Made by a program: the position numbers and the translations under genes. Source: a virus (Duplodnaviria; Heunggongvirae; Uroviricota; Caudoviricetes). Taken from it: 39,640 nt of DNA. The notes beneath the pieces are model-generated. The model was not told the DNA's origin. It saw only the letters and a list, made by a program, of their open reading frames with translations, and did no database searches. Shown here piece after piece: positions 1-22,309 of the stretch; position 1 is the first letter of the stretch; each line of letters begins with the position of its first letter. The stretch lies in IMG/VR virus record IMGVR_UViG_2563366929_000005, one strand, 5' to 3'.

Positions 1-1236
1 ATGGCGCTGTCTGATGCGTGGTTGCGTTCAGTCGTTGGAAAGGAACGTGATAAGGTTTTGGTTAAATCCGATCGTGATGGTCTGTCTGTCAGAGTATCAC
101 CGAAAGGTCGCGTAGTGTTCCAATATCGTTATCAATGGGCAGGGAAAGGTGAGCGCCTTGATATCGGAACTTACCCGGCAACTGGATTAAAAGAGGCCAG
201 AGAAGAAGTTATCCGTCTCCGTGGTGAACTCGAGTCAAACCGCAATCCACGATTAGTCAAGCAGGCTGAAAAACGAAAAGCTACTGAAGCCATGACGGTA
301 GAGTCTGTGATCCGTGCCTGGTATGAAGCATATTGTGTAAAAAATAAAAAAGGTTCTGAACAGATACTCCGCTCGTTTGAGCTGCACCTGTTCTCTAAAA
401 TCGGGAATATCCCTCACGATGCAGCTACATTGCATGATTGGTTAGAAGTCCTGGAGCCTCTTAGCACCAAGACTCCAGCAATAGTAGACCGATTGCTAAT
501 TAACGCAAAGCAGGCCCATGTCTGGGCGTATAAGAGAAAGCTCATTGAAACTCGCCCACTGTCGGATATCACGGGTAAAGATATGGATATCCGTAAAGGT
601 CAGAAAAAACGGTTTCTGACACATGATGAAATTAACATCCTTTATGCTGCGATCGATGGTTCTCGAATGGTTCCTAAATACCGAGCCTTCATTAAACTAT
701 TGCTGCATTTTGGTTGCCGTAGTTCAGAGCTAATTACTGCTAGGGTGGATGATTTTGATTTCATAAATAAGGTATGGACTGTACCACCAGAACGACATAA
801 GACTGGGGACATAACAGGCGAACCGCTAAAGCGGCCCATTATTGAACCGGTTGAAGAGCTTATAAAATACGCTATCTCTATGAACAACGGTTCCGATATG
901 CTTTTTACTAAGGAAGGAAGCAGGGAGCCAGTTGGTCGGACATCATTGCAGTCGCTGCCTTACAATTTAATGCAGTTCGCATGGCGACGTTTGGGGTATC
1001 AATTTCCTCATTGGTCTCTTCATGATTTGAGACGAACAGCACGAACAAACTTTTCTGATCTTACTGCTCCTCATATTGCTGAAATAATGCTCGGTCATAA
1101 ACTGCCAGGTGTATGGCAAGTTTATGATAAGAGCGATTATCTAGAAGAACAGCGTAAAGCTTACTGGGCATGGTGGGAGAGGGTTGAATCGATCGTTACT
1201 TGTACTGACTTAATCTCCAACGGACAGTTTGCGTAG
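1..1236 (+). CDS. int: Tyrosine integrase, P4-like (DUF4102-type N-terminus)
   Basis: 411-aa ORF. N-terminus (LSDAWLRS..DGLSVRVSPKGRVVFQYRY) is typical of P4-family integrases. C-terminus has HDLRRTARTN (HxxR) and a terminal Tyr region (GHKLPGVWQVYDKSDY). Confidence 0.95.
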   Translation: MALSDAWLRSVVGKERDKVLVKSDRDGLSVRVSPKGRVVFQYRYQWAGKGERLDIGTYPATGLKEAREEVIRLRGELESNRNPRLVKQAEKRKATEAMTVESVIRAWYEAYCVKNKKGSEQILRSFELHLFSKIGNIPHDAATLHDWLEVLEPLSTKTPAIVDRLLINAKQAHVWAYKRKLIETRPLSDITGKDMDIRKGQKKRFLTHDEINILYAAIDGSRMVPKYRAFIKLLLHFGCRSSELITARVDDFDFINKVWTVPPERHKTGDITGEPLKRPIIEPVEELIKYAISMNNGSDMLFTKEGSREPVGRTSLQSLPYNLMQFAWRRLGYQFPHWSLHDLRRTARTNFSDLTAPHIAEIMLGHKLPGVWQVYDKSDYLEEQRKAYWAWWERVESIVTCTDLISNGQFA

Positions 1237-8000: not shown

Positions 8001-8627
8001 CTAGAGTTCGTATTGAACTCCTTTGACTACACCAATGATGAGGCAATTACCATTGATCGGGATGTTGGGGTACCGGGGATTTAATGGCACTAAAAACTTT
8101 TGAGGGCCATCGATAACTAATTTTTTTACTGTGGCTTCGTTTGTTCCATCAAGTCTAGCGATGACTATTTTTCCATGCCGGGGTTCTGCATCAGGATCTA
8201 CAATCACTGTTGCGCCTTCTGGTATTGTTGGGAGGCCGTTAGGGTTAGTCATGGAGTCGCCTTTAACCTCCAATGCAAATGAGTTATCACCAATCTTTAA
8301 TGATGTATCTACCCACTTGTCTACTTCACTAAACACTTCTGCTGTCCTGCACTCAGTAAACTGCCCAGCCTGAACCCACGAGATTACAGGAACTCTGCGC
8401 ATGTTTGTGACGAGTTTGCCTTCAAACTCCGCACCATAAAGAATGTAATCTATTGACGTATTGAAGAACTTCGCTAATTTTGAAAGTGCTTCCCCACCAG
8501 GGACATTGATGTCTTTCTCCCAGTACCCCACAGCAACGTCACTTACTCCACAAAATTTACCCAATTCTTTCTGGGACGTTCTGGTAACTCTTCTCAGAGC
8601 TTTTATACGCTGACCAACCGTTTCCAT
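8001..8627 (-). CDS. cI: CI-like prophage repressor (HTH_XRE N-terminus plus S24 LexA-type autopeptidase C-terminus)
   Basis: 208 aa. The HTH is QKELGKFCGVSDVAVGYWEKD. There is an Ala-Gly cleavage region (VQAGQF), a Ser motif (GDSM) and a Lys motif (TVKKL). The gene is divergent from the cro-like gene. Confidence 0.9.
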   Translation of the reverse strand: METVGQRIKALRRVTRTSQKELGKFCGVSDVAVGYWEKDINVPGGEALSKLAKFFNTSIDYILYGAEFEGKLVTNMRRVPVISWVQAGQFTECRTAEVFSEVDKWVDTSLKIGDNSFALEVKGDSMTNPNGLPTIPEGATVIVDPDAEPRHGKIVIARLDGTNEATVKKLVIDGPQKFLVPLNPRYPNIPINGNCLIIGVVKGVQYEL

Positions 8628-9882: not shown

Positions 9883-9935
9883 AGGTCGGTCATGAGCCTG
9901 TTAATGACATCCCAGCCCATTGTGATAAATCGTGA
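9723..9935 (+). CDS. DUF4222-like small protein (TTG start)
   Basis: 70 aa. A strong AAGGAG Shine-Dalgarno sits 9 nt upstream of TTG. The sequence [33 protein letters not shown] resembles the DUF4222 family common in lambdoid phages. Confidence 0.55.
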
Positions 9936-10884
9936 TCTTGCATGCCGTATTGGTCTGAATGAGGCAATTGTGTTGCAGCAGCTTCATTACTGGCTGAATG
10001 AAACGAATTCAGGCACTGAGCATGGCGGAATTCGCTGGGTTTATAACACGACAGAACAGTGGCTGGAGCAGTTTCCGTTCTGGTCAGAGTCCACTCTGAA
10101 ACGCACATTTGCAAGCCTGAAATCACTTGGGGTTTTGCGTCGCGAGCAACTCAATAAATCGAAGCGTGACATGACCAACTTCTACACGATCAACTATGAA
10201 AGTGAGCTTTTAGAAGAGGTCAAAGTGAACGAATCCATCAGGTCAAAATGCACTTCTCCATCGGGTCAAAGTGACCTGATGGATGGGCGCAAAATGACAC
10301 GATCCATTGGTTCAAAACGACACGCTGTCATCGGGTCAAAATGGCCCAATGATCTTACAGAGAATACAACAGAGATTACTACAGAGAATAAAACCTCTTC
10401 TCGTCCGGACGCTTCGCAACCGGACACGCAAACGGCTGAACAGGATTTTTTAACTCGCCATCCTGATGCGGTTGTATTCAGCCCTAAAAAGCGCCAGTGG
10501 GGGACGCAGGATGATTTGACCTGCGCACAGTGGCTCTGGAAAAAAATCATCGCCCTGTACGAGCATGCCGCCGAATGTGACGGCGAGGTGGTTCGTCCCA
10601 AAGAACCGAACTGGACAGCATGGGCAAACGAAATTCGCCTGATGTGTGTGCAGGATGGTCGTACTCATAAACAAATCTGCGAGATGTACAGCCGCGTCAG
10701 TCGCGATCCGTTCTGGTGCCGTAACGTGCTCAGCCCGTCGAAGCTGCGGGAAAAATGGGATGAGCTTTCCCTGCGCTTATCGCCGTCCGTCAGCACGTAC
10801 ACCGAAAAACGCGAAGACCCGTACTTCAAAGCCAGTTACGACAACGTGGACTACAGCCAGATCCCGGCAGGATTCAGGGGGTGA
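9892..10884 (+). CDS. Replication initiator (O-like) with an internal origin
   Basis: 330 aa with an N-terminal wHTH-like region. The iteron array lies inside the coding sequence, as in lambda O. Confidence 0.85.
   Translation: MSLLMTSQPIVINRDLACRIGLNEAIVLQQLHYWLNETNSGTEHGGIRWVYNTTEQWLEQFPFWSESTLKRTFASLKSLGVLRREQLNKSKRDMTNFYTINYESELLEEVKVNESIRSKCTSPSGQSDLMDGRKMTRSIGSKRHAVIGSKWPNDLTENTTEITTENKTSSRPDASQPDTQTAEQDFLTRHPDAVVFSPKKRQWGTQDDLTCAQWLWKKIIALYEHAAECDGEVVRPKEPNWTAWANEIRLMCVQDGRTHKQICEMYSRVSRDPFWCRNVLSPSKLREKWDELSLRLSPSVSTYTEKREDPYFKASYDNVDYSQIPAGFRG
10218..10343 (+). repeat. Origin iterons: six copies of GGTCAAA[AG]TG-like repeats at 23-bp periodicity
   Basis: Perfect copies start at 10218, 10241, 10264 and 10334. 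Degenerate copies start at about 10287 and 10309. Confidence 0.8.
10357..10390 (+). repeat. Three 12-bp-spaced ACAGAGAWTA repeats next to the iterons (probable unwinding or ori accessory region)
   Basis: ACAGAGAATA at 10357, ACAGAGATTA at 10369 and ACAGAGAATA at 10381. Confidence 0.5.
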
Positions 10885-11375
10885 TCATGAGTCTTTTGAA
10901 TGACGTTCAGAAATTCATTGAAGCCCATCCGGGGTGTACTTCCGGAGACATTGCGGATGCTTTTGCAGGTTACTCACGACAGCGCGTTCTGCAGTCAGCA
11001 AGCAAGTTACGTCAGAGTGGGCGTGTGGCTCACCGTTGTGAAGGGGATACACGCAGACATTTCCCGCGGCTGACTGAGATACCGCAGGAGCCGGAACCGC
11101 AACCAGTTCGTGAATCCAGACCTGTGCGCAATTTCTATGTCGGCACTAACGATCCCCGGGTGATTTTGTGCCTGACCCGCCAGGCGGAAGAACTGGAGTC
11201 CAGGGGCTTATACCGTCGTGCTGCAACGGTGTGGATGGCGGCATTCCGTGAAAGCCACTCCCAGCAAGAGCGAAACAATTTTCTTGCGCGTCGTGAGCGG
11301 TGTTTACGGAAAAGCAGCAAGCGCGCTGTATCGGGTGAAGAGTGGTATCTGTCAGGGAATTACGTGGGGGCTTAA
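10881..11375 (+). CDS. PerC/Pch-family-like transcriptional regulator (N-terminal wHTH-like region plus PerC-like C-terminus)
   Basis: 164 aa. AEELESRGLYRRAATVWMAAF...ERNNFLARRERCLRK resembles the PerC signature (LE..GLWRRAA..W....RR..C). Confidence 0.55.
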   Translation: MIMSLLNDVQKFIEAHPGCTSGDIADAFAGYSRQRVLQSASKLRQSGRVAHRCEGDTRRHFPRLTEIPQEPEPQPVRESRPVRNFYVGTNDPRVILCLTRQAEELESRGLYRRAATVWMAAFRESHSQQERNNFLARRERCLRKSSKRAVSGEEWYLSGNYVGA

Positions 11376-11701
11376 TGACGACGTTAACTCAATGCCAGCA
11401 GCAGGTGCTGGATATGCTGATTTCTTACCAGAAAGAACGTGGCTTCCCGCCAACCAATCAGGAGGTGGCTACCATGCTGGGATACCGTTCAGTGAATGCA
11501 GCGGTGGAGCATCTTCGCGCACTGGAGAAAAAAGGCGTCATCACGATAAAGCGTGGCGTGGCCCGGGGCATCACGCTTCATACCGCGGTGAAGGACGACG
11601 ACAGCGAGGTGGCCGGGATTATCCGCGCACTGCTTGCTGGTGAGGAAAACGCCAGGCTGCGTGCAGCCCACTGGTTACATGAGAGGGGGCTGAAAGTATG
11701 A
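11375..11701 (+). CDS. LexA DNA-binding-domain-only protein (no S24 peptidase domain)
   Basis: 108 aa counted from MTTLTQCQQQVLDML (TAATG overlap). It aligns by eye with E. coli LexA residues 1-70: LT..QQ.V.D.I....G.PPT..E.A..LG.RS.NAA.EHL.AL..KGVI.I..G..RGI.L. Confidence 0.8.
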   Translation: MTTLTQCQQQVLDMLISYQKERGFPPTNQEVATMLGYRSVNAAVEHLRALEKKGVITIKRGVARGITLHTAVKDDDSEVAGIIRALLAGEENARLRAAHWLHERGLKV

Positions 11702-12087
11702 AGCTGATTCTGCCTTTTCCACCCAGCGTGAACACCTACTGGCGACACCCCAACAAAGGGGCATTTGCTGGTAAGAGCCTGATAAGCGCGGCGGGGCGAA
11801 AATTCCAGAGTGCGGCGTGCACAGCAATAGTTGAGCAGTTACGTCGTCTGCCGAAACCAACGTCGGCACCTGCTTCAGTGGAGATCGTGTTGTTTCCTCC
11901 GGATAACCGGATCCGCGATCTGGACAACTATAACAAGGCGCTGTTTGACGCCCTGACCCACGCGGGTGTGTGGGAAGACGACAGCCAGGTGAAAAGAATG
12001 CTGGTGGAGTGGGGACCGGTTATCCCGGAAGGGAAGGTCGAGATCACTATCAGTAAGTACGAGAAAACTGCGGGTGCAGCCGCCTGA
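11698..12087 (+). CDS. rusA: RusA Holliday-junction resolvase
   Basis: 129 aa. The RusA signature is present: LPFPPSVNTYWR...RDLDNYNKALFDALTHAGVWEDDSQV. Confidence 0.95.
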   Translation: MKLILPFPPSVNTYWRHPNKGAFAGKSLISAAGRKFQSAACTAIVEQLRRLPKPTSAPASVEIVLFPPDNRIRDLDNYNKALFDALTHAGVWEDDSQVKRMLVEWGPVIPEGKVEITISKYEKTAGAAA

Positions 12088-12905: not shown

Positions 12906-13901
12906 GTGACCGTGAGAGCACTACTGACCCCTGAAATTGCCCCGCGTATGGGGATCGTATTGTTCAGACCAGGTTCAGAGCTGATGCCCCTGTTTATGCA
13001 GGGGCGTGTCCTGCTGGAGCCTGAGCCGGAACGTTATTCATCTTTCGCCAGTGGTGCCGTTCCGGCGGCATCACAACCGCTGGCGGATGATCCTGCCGTT
13101 CGGGCCGTGTTCCGCAATGAGGCAGTGATCCGTCGTGCTGGTGGCGTGGAATGTCTTGAAAGCTGGTTACTTCGTGAAAAAGGCTGCCAGTGGCCTCATT
13201 CCGACTGGCACAGCGAGAACATGACCACAATGCGGCACGCTCCGGGCGCAATCCGTCTGTGCTGGCACTGCGATAACCAGTTGCGCGATCAGTTCACGGA
13301 ACGGCTGGAATCAATGGCAACGGATAACTGTGCCCGCTGGGTGTTATCTGTTGTGCGCCGTGATCTCGGTTTTGATGACAGTCACGTTGTGACAATGCCG
13401 GAACTGTGCTGGTGGCTGGTTCGTAATGACCTGGCGGATGCCTTACCGGAAAGTGCAGCCCGTAAGGCACTGAGATTACCGAAGCCTGTTGTGCCGTCTG
13501 TCACCCGGGAGAGTGACCTTGTTCCTTCGGTTCCTGCCACCAGCATTATCCAGGATAAAGCGAAAAAGGTGCTGGCGCTGAAAGTGGATCCGGAGTCGCC
13601 GGAGTCTTTTATGTTACGCCCAAAACGTCGCCGCTGGGTTAATGAAAAGTACACGCGCTGGGTTAAGACACAGCCGTGTGCATGTTGTGGAAAGCCAGCT
13701 GATGATCCCCACCACCTGATAGGCCACGGTCAGGGGGGAATGGGTACAAAAGCGCATGACCTCTTTGTGTTGCCTTTGTGCAGAAAGCATCACGACGAGC
13801 TGCATGCGGATACCGTGGCATTTGAAGAGAAGTATGGCTCCCAGCTGGAGCTGATATTTCGTTTTATCGATCGTGCGCTGGCAATTGGCGTGCTGGCCTG
13901 A
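12906..13901 (+). CDS. DUF968 (YdfU-like) protein with a C-terminal Cys/His HNH-like motif
   Basis: 331 aa with a GTG start. The C-terminus reads QPCACCGKPADDPHHL...LPLCRKHHDELH. Confidence 0.8.
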   Translation: MTVRALLTPEIAPRMGIVLFRPGSELMPLFMQGRVLLEPEPERYSSFASGAVPAASQPLADDPAVRAVFRNEAVIRRAGGVECLESWLLREKGCQWPHSDWHSENMTTMRHAPGAIRLCWHCDNQLRDQFTERLESMATDNCARWVLSVVRRDLGFDDSHVVTMPELCWWLVRNDLADALPESAARKALRLPKPVVPSVTRESDLVPSVPATSIIQDKAKKVLALKVDPESPESFMLRPKRRRWVNEKYTRWVKTQPCACCGKPADDPHHLIGHGQGGMGTKAHDLFVLPLCRKHHDELHADTVAFEEKYGSQLELIFRFIDRALAIGVLA

Positions 13902-13918
13902 TTTTGTGGAGAAAGTTG

Positions 13919-14299
13919 ATGCGTGATATTCAGATGGTTCTTGAACGCTGGGGGGCATGGGCTGCAAGTGGTAACACCGGGGTGGACTATTCTCCGATCG
14001 CTGCCGGATTCAAAGGACTTTTACCATCTGCCACTAAACCACGTCCGGCCTGCTGCGATGATGACGGACTTATCATTGAAAACTGTCTTGCTCGTCTGAA
14101 GCAGAAAAAACCTGAGGAGTATTCGCTTCTCATTGCTCATTATTTGTTGCGAATATCAAAAAGACAGATAGCCAGGACGAGAAAGAAAAGCGAAAAAGCA
14201 ATACGAATTGAGATGCAGATAGCCGAAGGGTTTATTGACGGATGTTTGTCTGTGCTGGGGGTAAGACTGGAGATGGACGACTGGCTGCTAAAAAAGTAA
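13919..14299 (+). CDS. Q: Late-gene antiterminator Q (QuuD/phage-82 type)
   Basis: 126 aa counted from MRDIQMVLERWGAWAA..IAAGFKGL. This closely resembles my recollection of the DLP12 QuuD N-terminus. The upstream TTG in the track ORF is rejected. Confidence 0.9.
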   Translation: MRDIQMVLERWGAWAASGNTGVDYSPIAAGFKGLLPSATKPRPACCDDDGLIIENCLARLKQKKPEEYSLLIAHYLLRISKRQIARTRKKSEKAIRIEMQIAEGFIDGCLSVLGVRLEMDDWLLKK

Positions 14300-14400: not shown

Positions 14401-14729
14401 ACGTTAAATGCGCTGGTGGTTGTGAATGCCGACTGCGGCGGTATTTTGGCGTGACGGCGCAGGTGCCGTATACCGATGTCTGGACGCATAAACCGGTGCA
14501 GTTCTATCCCGGGAAACATCCGTGCGAAAAACCGGCAGAAATGCTGCAGCAGATAATCAGCGCTAGCAGTCGTCCGGGTGACCTGATTGCAGATTTTTTC
14601 ATGGGGTCGGGTTCGACAGTGAAAGCGGCACTGGCGCTCGGGCGTCGTGCAATTGGCGTTGAGCTGGAGACTGAACGTTTTGAGCAGACGGTTCGGGAAG
14701 TACAGGATTTAGTCAGCCAGAACGGATGA
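14401..14729 (+). pseudogene. Remnant of a DNA (N6-A/N4-C type) methyltransferase
   Basis: The C-terminal 92 aa carry HPCEKP and DFFMGSGST (AdoMet motif I of beta-class MTases). An N-terminal-like stub ..LVVVNADCGGILA* (14401-14454) is in another frame. No DPPY-type catalytic motif is present. Confidence 0.7.
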
Positions 14730-21093: not shown

Positions 21094-22309
21094 TGCTCTG
21101 TTTCGCAGTGAGCCTCTGGAAAATCCCTCGGTTCCGGTAACCGGAGAGGCCGCTGAGACGGATAATATTTTTGCCCGGGATGTGTATGTCAGTCCGGAAA
21201 CATCCATGAAGCTGGCTGCTGTCTATGCCTGTATTTATGTTATTTCATCCAGTGTGGCTCAGATGCCCCTGCATGTGATGCGAAAAACGAATGAGCATGT
21301 TCAGCCGGCACGCGATCACCCGTTGTTCTGGCTCGTTCATGATGAACCTAATGCCTGGCAGACCAGCTATAAGTGGCGGGAACTGAAGCAGCGTCATGTG
21401 CTGGGGTGGGGCAATGGTTATACGTGGGTAAAACGTAATCGTCGTGGCGAGGTTACCAGTCTTGAATGCTGTATGCCATGGGAAACCACGTTACTTAACA
21501 CCGGAGGGCGTCATACCTACGGTGTGTATAACGAAGAGGGTGCATTTGCGGTAAGTCCGGACGACATGATCCATATCAGGGCGCTGGGAAACAATCAGAA
21601 AATGGGACTGAGTCCGATCATGCAGCATGCTGAAACCATTGGTATGGGAATGAGTGGTCAGCAGTATACCAGTGCTTTTTTTAACGGTAATGCCCGTCCT
21701 GCCGGGATTATTTCTGTGAAAAATGAACTGAACGAACAGAGTTGGAGCAGGCTCAAGAATATGTGGCAGCGGGCGGTGACAGCGCTTCGCAGTCAGGAAA
21801 ATAAAACCATGCTGCTGCCTGCGCAACTGGATTACCGCGCTCTGACAGTTTCTCCGGTGGATGCTCAGATCATTGATATGACCAAGCTGAACCGGTCGAT
21901 GATTGCCGGGATTTTTAATGTCCCGGCGCACATGATTAATGACCTGGAAAAAGCCACATTTTCGAATATTACGCAGCAGGCGATTCAGTTTGTTCGCTAC
22001 ACGATGATGCCCTGGGTTGCGAACTGGGAGCAGGAGCTTAACCGTCGCCTGTTTACCCGTACAGAACGGGCTGCCGGGTATTACGTTCGTTTCAACCTCA
22101 CGGGGTTGCTCCGTGGGACCCCACAGGAGCGTGCGCAGTTCTATCACTTTGCCATTACAGATGGCTGGATGAGCCGGAATGAAGCCAGGGCATTTGAGGA
22201 TATGAACCCGGTTGACGGTCTGGATGAAATGCTGGTCAGCGTAAATGCAGCAAATCCGTTGAATAACTTTAAAGATACGAAAGGCAAAGAGGAAAAGAAC
22301 GATGAATGA
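21083..22309 (+). CDS. Portal protein (HK97 family)
   Basis: 408 aa with an AGGAGA Shine-Dalgarno. Position and sequence character are those of HK97-family portals. Confidence 0.95.
   Translation: MLLDALFRSEPLENPSVPVTGEAAETDNIFARDVYVSPETSMKLAAVYACIYVISSSVAQMPLHVMRKTNEHVQPARDHPLFWLVHDEPNAWQTSYKWRELKQRHVLGWGNGYTWVKRNRRGEVTSLECCMPWETTLLNTGGRHTYGVYNEEGAFAVSPDDMIHIRALGNNQKMGLSPIMQHAETIGMGMSGQQYTSAFFNGNARPAGIISVKNELNEQSWSRLKNMWQRAVTALRSQENKTMLLPAQLDYRALTVSPVDAQIIDMTKLNRSMIAGIFNVPAHMINDLEKATFSNITQQAIQFVRYTMMPWVANWEQELNRRLFTRTERAAGYYVRFNLTGLLRGTPQERAQFYHFAITDGWMSRNEARAFEDMNPVDGLDEMLVSVNAANPLNNFKDTKGKEEKNDE

Follow-up and report, generated by a model that had tools for sequence, protein, structure and literature searches.

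What does a lambdoid prophage do with the DNA-binding domain of LexA when the domain that makes LexA cleavable is missing? This question is raised by a short open reading frame (ORF) in IMG/VR record IMGVR_UViG_2563366929_000005, a stretch of 39,640 nucleotides from a virus of the Caudoviricetes, the whole of which is referred to as the window. Judging from its sequence and its predicted structure, the product would be a small descendant of LexA that binds DNA sequence-specifically and in which a tail of two helices replaces the Peptidase_S24 (S24) domain. An earlier note, made from the nucleotide sequence without database searches, had regarded it as a RecA-insensitive LexA mimic. We consider it possible, if somewhat short of probable, that the protein acts as an uncleavable repressor of SOS boxes, made in lytic growth and directed at promoters of the host and of co-resident elements. 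What goes beyond the earlier note is that the two-helix tail is conserved, that the synteny with rusA is fixed, and that the family is already widely annotated. The gene and the two parts of its product are located as follows:

11375..11701, plus strand: coding sequence of the LexA-like protein, 108 amino acids plus stop (ORF list, PF01726, phrog_362)
11375..11578, plus strand: LexA-type winged helix-turn-helix (wHTH), residues 1-68 (BLASTP, AlphaFold2, superposition on 3jso)
11594..11683, plus strand: two-helix tail, residues 74-103, with helices 74-88 and 93-103 (AlphaFold2 with a predicted local distance difference test, pLDDT, of 86-88; conservation)

The LexA-type DNA-binding domain

The first ∼70 residues had been described as a LexA-like wHTH, which all comparisons bore out. 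The Pfam family LexA_DNA_bind (PF01726) was matched over its complete profile (positions 1-65 of 65) with 69 bits, the cut-off being 23.7 bits (E = 2.9e-19), and BLASTP aligned residues 1-68 with those of E. coli LexA without a gap (35 of 68 identical, 51%; E = 2e-21). Among proteins of known structure, 1lea and 3jso were matched with E of ∼1e-15, and the nearest solved relatives were the gammaproteobacterial LexAs (59.7 bits for the E. coli protein vs 30 bits for that of Thermotoga maritima). In the AlphaFold2 model (mean pLDDT 84), the domain had the layout of a wHTH, with helices at residues 6-22, 28-35, and 40-52 and strands at 56-58 and 66-68, and it superposed on DNA-bound LexA (3jso) with a root-mean-square deviation (rmsd) of 1.0 Å over 68 residues. 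The phage family phrog_362 ("transcriptional repressor") was matched over all of its positions (1-106 of 106; E = 7e-58).

The similarity includes the recognition helix, where RSVNAAVEHL of the phage protein aligns with RSPNAAEEHL of LexA, just as had been noted by eye. The residues with which LexA contacts DNA are S39, N41, A42, E44, and E45 (a list taken second-hand from PMC3091678). As the corresponding helix of the LexA-like protein carries S39, N41, A42, V44, and E45, four of the five are kept, as is R64, and only E44 is replaced, by valine. Valine at this position is also seen in P0200, a full-length protein of a gammaproteobacterium (Halothiobacillaceae bacterium) that is a genuine LexA. 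Further changes compared with E. coli LexA are R28 to N and P40 to V. Across the family alignment, S39 is fully conserved and N41 almost so.

Absence of the cleavage domain

Of the features by which LexA is recognized, the N-terminal wHTH is present in the phage protein, and the S24 domain with its Ser/Lys pair and the cleaved Ala-Gly is absent. The chain ends at residue 108, and no match to Peptidase_S24 was found in it with Pfam; the NCBIfam equivalog model for lexA, TIGR00498, scored 67.4, which is far below its cut-off of 110.95. The lack of a Ser/Lys peptidase domain, as claimed previously, is therefore confirmed, and because this domain is a defining feature, the LexA-like protein is not a member of LexA proper. 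Without it, RecA*-stimulated self-cleavage is structurally impossible. Thus, RecA* cannot inactivate it by this route, and in this sense the proposed RecA insensitivity stands.

The statement that the protein contains no Ala-Gly proved incorrect. The dipeptide occurs twice (A80-G81 and A88-G89), and the sequence LLAGEEN aligns with VAAGEPL of LexA. Together with the span of the TIGR00498 match (positions 1-91), this alignment is a hint that homology extends through the old LexA hinge. However, neither dipeptide is conserved, A88S alleles being present in E. coli and other residues in other genera; because of this variation, and because there is no catalytic domain, they do not constitute a self-cleavage site.

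The two-helix tail

The "short helical tail" with which the protein had been said to end corresponds to two helices in the AlphaFold2 model, preceded by a short linker of low confidence. Its hydrophobic pattern is conserved in relatives down to 35-47% identity, namely, in Cronobacter, Kosakonia, Enterobacter, Cedecea, Klebsiella, Citrobacter, Salmonella, and phage mEp390, with A97 and L101 being invariant. Searches of the PDB (with a tail profile), Pfam, and PADLOC returned nothing meaningful for this segment. In Klebsiella phage Kp4866-6 (L219:4397-4873; P0133), the tail is replaced by an unrelated C-terminal domain (∼90 residues) in a protein whose N-terminal domain is 66% identical, and the position of its gene, upstream of rusA, is unchanged. 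In LexA, both the dimer interface and the surface contacting RecA* reside in the C-terminal S24 domain. A helical hairpin with seven to eight conserved hydrophobic positions, which can be swapped for another domain, is what would be expected of an oligomerization module replacing this dimer interface. The tail is, thus, a candidate dimerization element.

Distribution and conservation of the family

Among 52 distinct alleles, mean dN/dS (the ratio of nonsynonymous to synonymous substitution rates) was ∼0.05. The gene is under strong purifying selection and clearly functional; a pseudogene or truncated remnant of lexA was ruled out by this value and by the conservation of the tail across genera. 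It is present in 2,233 of 5,426 complete E. coli genomes (∼40%), with up to four copies per genome. Copies of 94-100% identity are found in SfV (orf42), SfII, SfIV, cdtI, mEp460, Ayreon, and many phages encoding Shiga toxin 2 (Stx2) of the types Stx2a, Stx2c, and Stx2k. The short form of the family found in prophages was delimited as proteins of ∼105-135 amino acids in which a LexA wHTH is followed by the pattern E-x3-(I/L)(I/L)-x2-(L/M)(L/I/V)...A-x2-(W/F/L)-L and whose genes lie upstream of rusA/DUF968/Q; according to alignments and synteny, the protein of the window belongs to it. RefSeq names it "LexA family transcriptional regulator", and a comparative study lists the family, without further comment, as "pham 237, LexA family transcriptional regulator, pfam01726" among lysis-lysogeny genes (PMC8136144). 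Functional work on this prophage LexA-like family was not found in the literature. The family is, thus, already annotated but unstudied, and its conserved tail is novel.

LexA_DNA_bind domains also occur as tandem pairs in one chain (P0129, P0146, P0150-P0153, P0157-P0160, P0164, P0180, P0188, and P0213). In P0129 and P0152, the sequences of which were inspected, there is no S24 domain, and at least one tandem protein stems from a Planctomycetaceae metagenome-assembled genome. These proteins may be single-chain pseudo-dimers.

Probable expression from the early lytic operon

When the LexA-like protein would be made can be judged from the position of its gene. The relevant features of the window, in gene order, are as follows:

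1..1236: integrase, at the 5′ end of the lambdoid prophage window, the far end of which holds the tail fibers
8001..8627, minus strand: prophage cI repressor with HTH_3 and Peptidase_S24 (Pfam); VQAGQ (Ala-Gly), GDSM (serine), and VKKL (lysine) in the translation
between cI and the O-like gene: CII-like gene
9892..10884, plus strand: O-like replication initiator (phrog_391, E = 2e-101), opening the early-operon block that holds the LexA-like gene
10881..11375, plus strand: PerC-family (yfdN-like) gene, 164 amino acids (Pfam PerC, E = 9e-10; RefSeq "yfdN: PerC family")
11698..12087, plus strand: rusA, Holliday-junction resolvase (Pfam RusA, E = 7e-15)
between rusA and the DUF968/HNH-like gene: KilA-N gene
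12906..13901, plus strand: DUF968/HNH-like gene (Pfam DUF968, E = 2e-81)
13904..14299, plus strand: antiterminator Q (Pfam Phage_antitermQ, E = 2e-52)

The cI product has all parts of a cleavable S24-type repressor, which is what the earlier note had stated for the prophage's own repressor. The LexA-like ORF starts with ATG, 5-9 nt upstream of which lies a Shine-Dalgarno-like run (GGGGG). This start codon overlaps the stop codon of the PerC-family gene (TAATG), and the stop codon of the LexA-like gene overlaps the ATG of rusA (ATGA). Such start/stop overlaps between the replication gene and Q are consistent with translational coupling in an early lytic operon. No promoter-like site was found immediately upstream of the LexA-like gene, and no convincing terminator on the plus strand around it, where weak terminator-like matches are scattered across the region. 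Given the overlaps and the lack of both an adjacent promoter and a convincing terminator, the gene most simply belongs to the early rightward (PR) operon, from which we infer that the protein is made during lytic growth.

SOS boxes and the specificity of the LexA-like protein

In the mechanism proposed here, the LexA-like protein would dimerize through its helical tail, bind the SOS box of the host (CTGT-N8-ACAG or a similar sequence), and repress from there without being removable by RecA. It would be made by read-through from PR after prophage induction or infection, that is, when host LexA is cleaved, and would then re-impose repression on SOS-box promoters. Candidate targets are LexA-controlled antirepressors, colicins, toxins, and error-prone polymerases. 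The full version of this scheme, a RecA-proof second LexA whose tail-mediated dimer sits on canonical SOS boxes and, after induction of its own prophage, shuts the SOS regulon of the host together with mobile elements under LexA control, including the antirepressors of rival prophages, is more doubtful. Binding of SOS boxes is favored by the four kept contact residues and R64, by the presence of V44 in a full-length LexA, by the fact that gammaproteobacterial LexAs are the nearest solved relatives, and by the partial SOS-box binding and repression of the free N-terminal fragment of LexA (PMC10584840). It is also favored by the palindrome ACTGT-N8-ACAGT, the only one common to ten divergent loci when terminators and origin repeats are set aside.

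SOS boxes were searched for with a position-specific scoring matrix (PSSM) based on SOS boxes of E. coli. In a branch of the family from Klebsiella and Cedecea (∼40% identical, with an N-terminal extension), the LexA-like gene lies in a unit opened by a strong SOS-box promoter, without a terminator in between. Klebsiella variicola and phage Kp4865-4 have, in this order, the SOS box, dinI, a 96-amino acid ORF, and the LexA-like gene; Cedecea/Enterobacter prophages have the SOS box, the 96-amino acid ORF, and the LexA-like gene. The product of this conserved ORF begins with MPNTGYAIIRCDDG. The units are located as follows:

L093:9491-10498, L002:5293-6300, and L006:4531-5408: SOS-box units of Klebsiella and Cedecea/Enterobacter prophages

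The dinI gene is a known damper of the SOS response, and its pairing with the LexA-like gene is in keeping with an "SOS off" role. With an SOS box ahead of it, the LexA-like gene could also be autoregulated in the manner of LexA.

SOS boxes were also found in relatives of the window prophage, at three other places. The first is a near-consensus box, TACTGTTTTTATATACAGTA (18 of 20 positions), inside the cI coding sequence, at the linker between HTH and S24 (L023:7095-7114; cI at L023 6631..7323, minus strand). It is present in SfII, mEp460, several Stx2 phages, and at least 120 IMG/VR contigs, and absent from the cI of the window. A roadblock, an internal promoter, or an antisense promoter are candidate roles for this box, on which a literature search returned nothing. 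The second is the strong box TACTGTAAAAATAAACAGTG with which the gene for a full-length N6_N4 DNA methyltransferase opens (L003:10899-11951, which is SfV orf48); it occurs in SfV, cdtI, mEp460, Stx2c phages, Kosakonia prophages, and phage phiNP, and judging from this box the late-region methylase is apparently under control of host LexA. In the window, this box is deleted together with the 5′ part of the gene; the ORF following Q (14451..14729) encodes only the C-terminal 84 residues of the methyltransferase (Pfam positions 137-220 of 221). The third, TACTGTATTTATGAACAGTG, lies at 10765-10784 of locus L007, the LexA-like protein of which is 100% identical to that of the window, in a spacer of 150 bp between rusA and a variant KilA-N gene. 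The corresponding spacer of the window has 20 bp and no SOS box. The LexA-like gene accompanies the first two of these boxes closely: it is present in all 13 phage records with the box inside cI, in all 27 E. coli/Shigella records with the SOS-box methylase, and in 44 of 50 IMG/VR contigs with the cI box.

Several observations weigh against SOS boxes as the target. When the prophage was scanned for CTGT-N8-ACAG boxes, as the earlier note had suggested, nothing rose above noise. The best PSSM score in the 39.6-kb window was 10.7 bits, which is less than that of the weakest true site used (13.5) and less than the mean maximum of shuffled sequences (11.7). Exact or one-mismatch matches to CTGT-N8-ACAG numbered 19 (13.3 expected), and the only perfect one, at 22049, has a GC-rich spacer and falls within a structural gene. 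As the prophage contains no SOS box, the target promoters would have to reside on the chromosome of the host and on co-resident elements. Around half of the divergent loci, among them those in mEp390, Cronobacter, Enterobacter, and Citrobacter, likewise lack an SOS box within 10 kb. The family varies at positions 44 and 45, E45 being replaced by L in Klebsiella, by T in Kp4866-6, and by D or G elsewhere. The Klebsiella member behind the best SOS box is one of those with L at position 45, so this box may serve host LexA only. Identity to E. coli LexA is no more than 51%, although all hosts are Enterobacterales, and dimerization through the tail is putative, the structural model being that of a monomer with a predicted template modeling score (pTM) of 0.57. 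Finally, the co-occurrence described above was rejected as functional evidence, because linkage was no weaker for the box-less cI allele of the window, which served as a control: the LexA-like gene is present in 61 of 66 contigs carrying it. Conversely, Citrobacter phage phiNP has two strong SOS boxes, at the start of the methylase gene and inside the repressor gene (L218:1196), and no LexA-like gene was detected in it, either in the region examined or by collection-wide tblastn. Co-occurrence, thus, reflects linkage within one phage lineage and is uninformative on function.

Part of this evidence would also be accounted for if the protein had kept the LexA fold and acquired an operator of its own, on the phage or the host, as a phage-specific repressor or activator outside the SOS regulon. 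We regard such diverged specificity as possible, if on the unlikely side. It has a precedent in gp6 of GIL01, a tectivirus of Bacillus thuringiensis: this truncated LexA homologue, 44% identical to the LexA of its host, recognizes GaCACAnnTGTGaC, not the box bound by that LexA, and switches on the late promoter P3 (PMC6182141), which is a further point against binding of SOS boxes by the LexA-like protein. The limited identity to host LexA, the substitutions E44V, R28N, and P40V, the variability of positions 44 and 45, and the lack of SOS boxes in the prophage and in half of the divergent relatives are all in line with a changed operator. In contrast, S39, N41, A42, and E45 are kept, and control of the late genes is already provided by Q. 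The searches for another operator also speak against it. When palindromes shared across ten divergent loci were enumerated, only ACTGT-N8-ACAGT recurred, apart from a terminator, poly-T/poly-A runs, origin-like repeats inside the replication gene, and a few unassessed matches in four or five loci, and when the early part of the window was searched for inverted repeats, nothing notable emerged beyond the cI operators. Neither approach produced a convincing alternative operator.

Synteny and a possible role in DNA handling

The order LexA-like gene, rusA, KilA-N or Ant gene, DUF968, and Q is kept in relatives down to ∼40% identity, next to unrelated replication modules; downstream, the conserved module ends with the DUF968/HNH-like gene and Q. 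The LexA-like gene of mEp390 and Enterobacter prophages directly follows the replication initiator gene and overlaps it. On this side it is flanked by the PerC-family regulator in the window and by a Dam methylase gene in many relatives, both of which are host-directed or accessory rather than part of core replication. The conserved order may reflect a functional tie to the recombination genes, and it may equally reflect inheritance as a module.

It is, therefore, conceivable, but in our estimation improbable, that the winged helix is an accessory of DNA handling, serving the RusA/DUF968 recombination (nin) module or replication, for example, by targeting or bending DNA. The preserved order, the start/stop overlap with rusA, and the contact with the initiator gene in mEp390 and Enterobacter prophages would suit such a role. 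However, synteny of mosaic lambdoid phages can result from module inheritance, and the cI linkage control illustrates how tight such linkage is. Moreover, in the Klebsiella loci, rusA is not adjacent to the LexA-like gene, and the residues that are conserved are those of a sequence-specific recognition helix. A fusion of the LexA-like N-terminus to the C-terminal HNH-like part of DUF968 (P0154; 240 amino acids) would also point to DNA handling, but it is represented by one member on one contig and probably arose by deletion between neighboring genes, which is why it was rejected as a "Rosetta stone".

Least credible, and very improbable, is interference at the protein level without specific DNA binding, be it as a heterodimer with LexA, as had been suggested, or as a decoy for RecA*: the S24 domain, seat of the LexA dimer interface and of the contact to RecA*, is absent, which leaves heterodimerization unsupported, the Ala-Gly dipeptides are not conserved, and the DNA-contacting positions are the most conserved ones, against which stand the apparent reach of homology to the LexA hinge (TIGR00498 positions 1-91; LLAGEEN vs VAAGEPL) and the existence of SOS modulators on mobile elements such as GIL01 gp7 and 434 Hex (PMC3564112).

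Three side observations concern the surroundings of the gene. The PerC-family and LexA-like genes adjoin, so that two potentially host-directed regulators occupy neighboring positions; PerC/Pch-family proteins activate the LEE (locus of enterocyte effacement) virulence island in enteropathogenic and enterohemorrhagic E. coli. At locus L007, the PerC-like and LexA-like ORFs are fused into one frame of 271 amino acids. In five divergent prophages, a palindrome, GGTTGC-N3-GCAACC, is located inside initiator genes of the Phg_2220_C type (L001:5593, L004:3185, L005:1781, L087:9593, and L091:8292), where it is probably part of a gene-embedded origin; it was not found in the different, O-like gene of the window.

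Implications

The SOS response governs prophage induction, the release of Shiga toxin and colicins, mutagenesis, and antibiotic tolerance. If the LexA-like protein does repress SOS boxes, very common prophages of E. coli and Shigella would contain an unrecognized second input into this response, which would become active just when the host repressor is destroyed. This could account for strain-to-strain variation in SOS kinetics and in the outcome of competition among several prophages after DNA damage. Such a phage-imposed "SOS off" switch would shape induction hierarchies, mutagenesis, and toxin release, the carriers including Stx2 phages and the serotype-converting phages of Shigella. Even if its specificity has drifted, the protein would represent the second independent reuse of the LexA DNA-binding head by phages after GIL01 gp6, in this case with a new helical tail.

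Comparison with known systems

With E. coli LexA, the phage protein shares the wHTH fold (rmsd 1.0 Å), 51% identity, and S39, N41, A42, E45, and R64. It differs from it by V44, by a 35-residue two-helix tail, and by the lack of both the S24 peptidase/dimerization domain and a functional cleavage site; moreover, it is encoded in the early operon of a phage, whereas lexA is an autoregulated chromosomal gene.

GIL01 gp6, the closest counterpart to have been studied, resembles it as a phage-encoded LexA DNA-binding domain without a cleavage domain that is expressed early in lytic growth. In contrast to the LexA-like protein, gp6 comprises 66 amino acids, has no tail, recognizes a palindrome other than that of LexA, and is an activator. 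Activators of the gp6 type use a palindrome of their own that overlaps the -35 element of a late promoter; a conserved non-SOS palindrome was seen neither in the window nor in common among relatives, and late control in the window prophage is exerted through antitermination by Q. As BLASTP did not align the two proteins even at E ≤ 100, kinship was rejected, and the two truncations arose independently.

The N-terminal fragment released by LexA autocleavage (residues 1-84) likewise consists of the DNA-binding domain of LexA without the catalytic one, and it dimerizes poorly. The phage protein differs from this fragment by its end (...RGLKV) and by the conserved additional helical hairpin. The free fragment retains some binding and repression of SOS boxes, and its removal requires ClpXP (PMC10584840); in the cell, ClpXP and Lon break it down rapidly (PMC3159453).

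DinI homologues of prophages, PsiB of conjugative plasmids, and gp7 of GIL01 are, like the proposed repressor, products of mobile elements that limit or reshape the SOS response of the host. They do so through protein-protein contact with RecA or LexA, whereas the LexA-like protein has a DNA-recognition domain; in Klebsiella, a prophage dinI and the LexA-like gene even share one SOS-box-controlled unit. Non-cleavable LexA (Ind−) mutants hold the SOS response repressed after damage; this is the very behavior proposed here for the phage protein.

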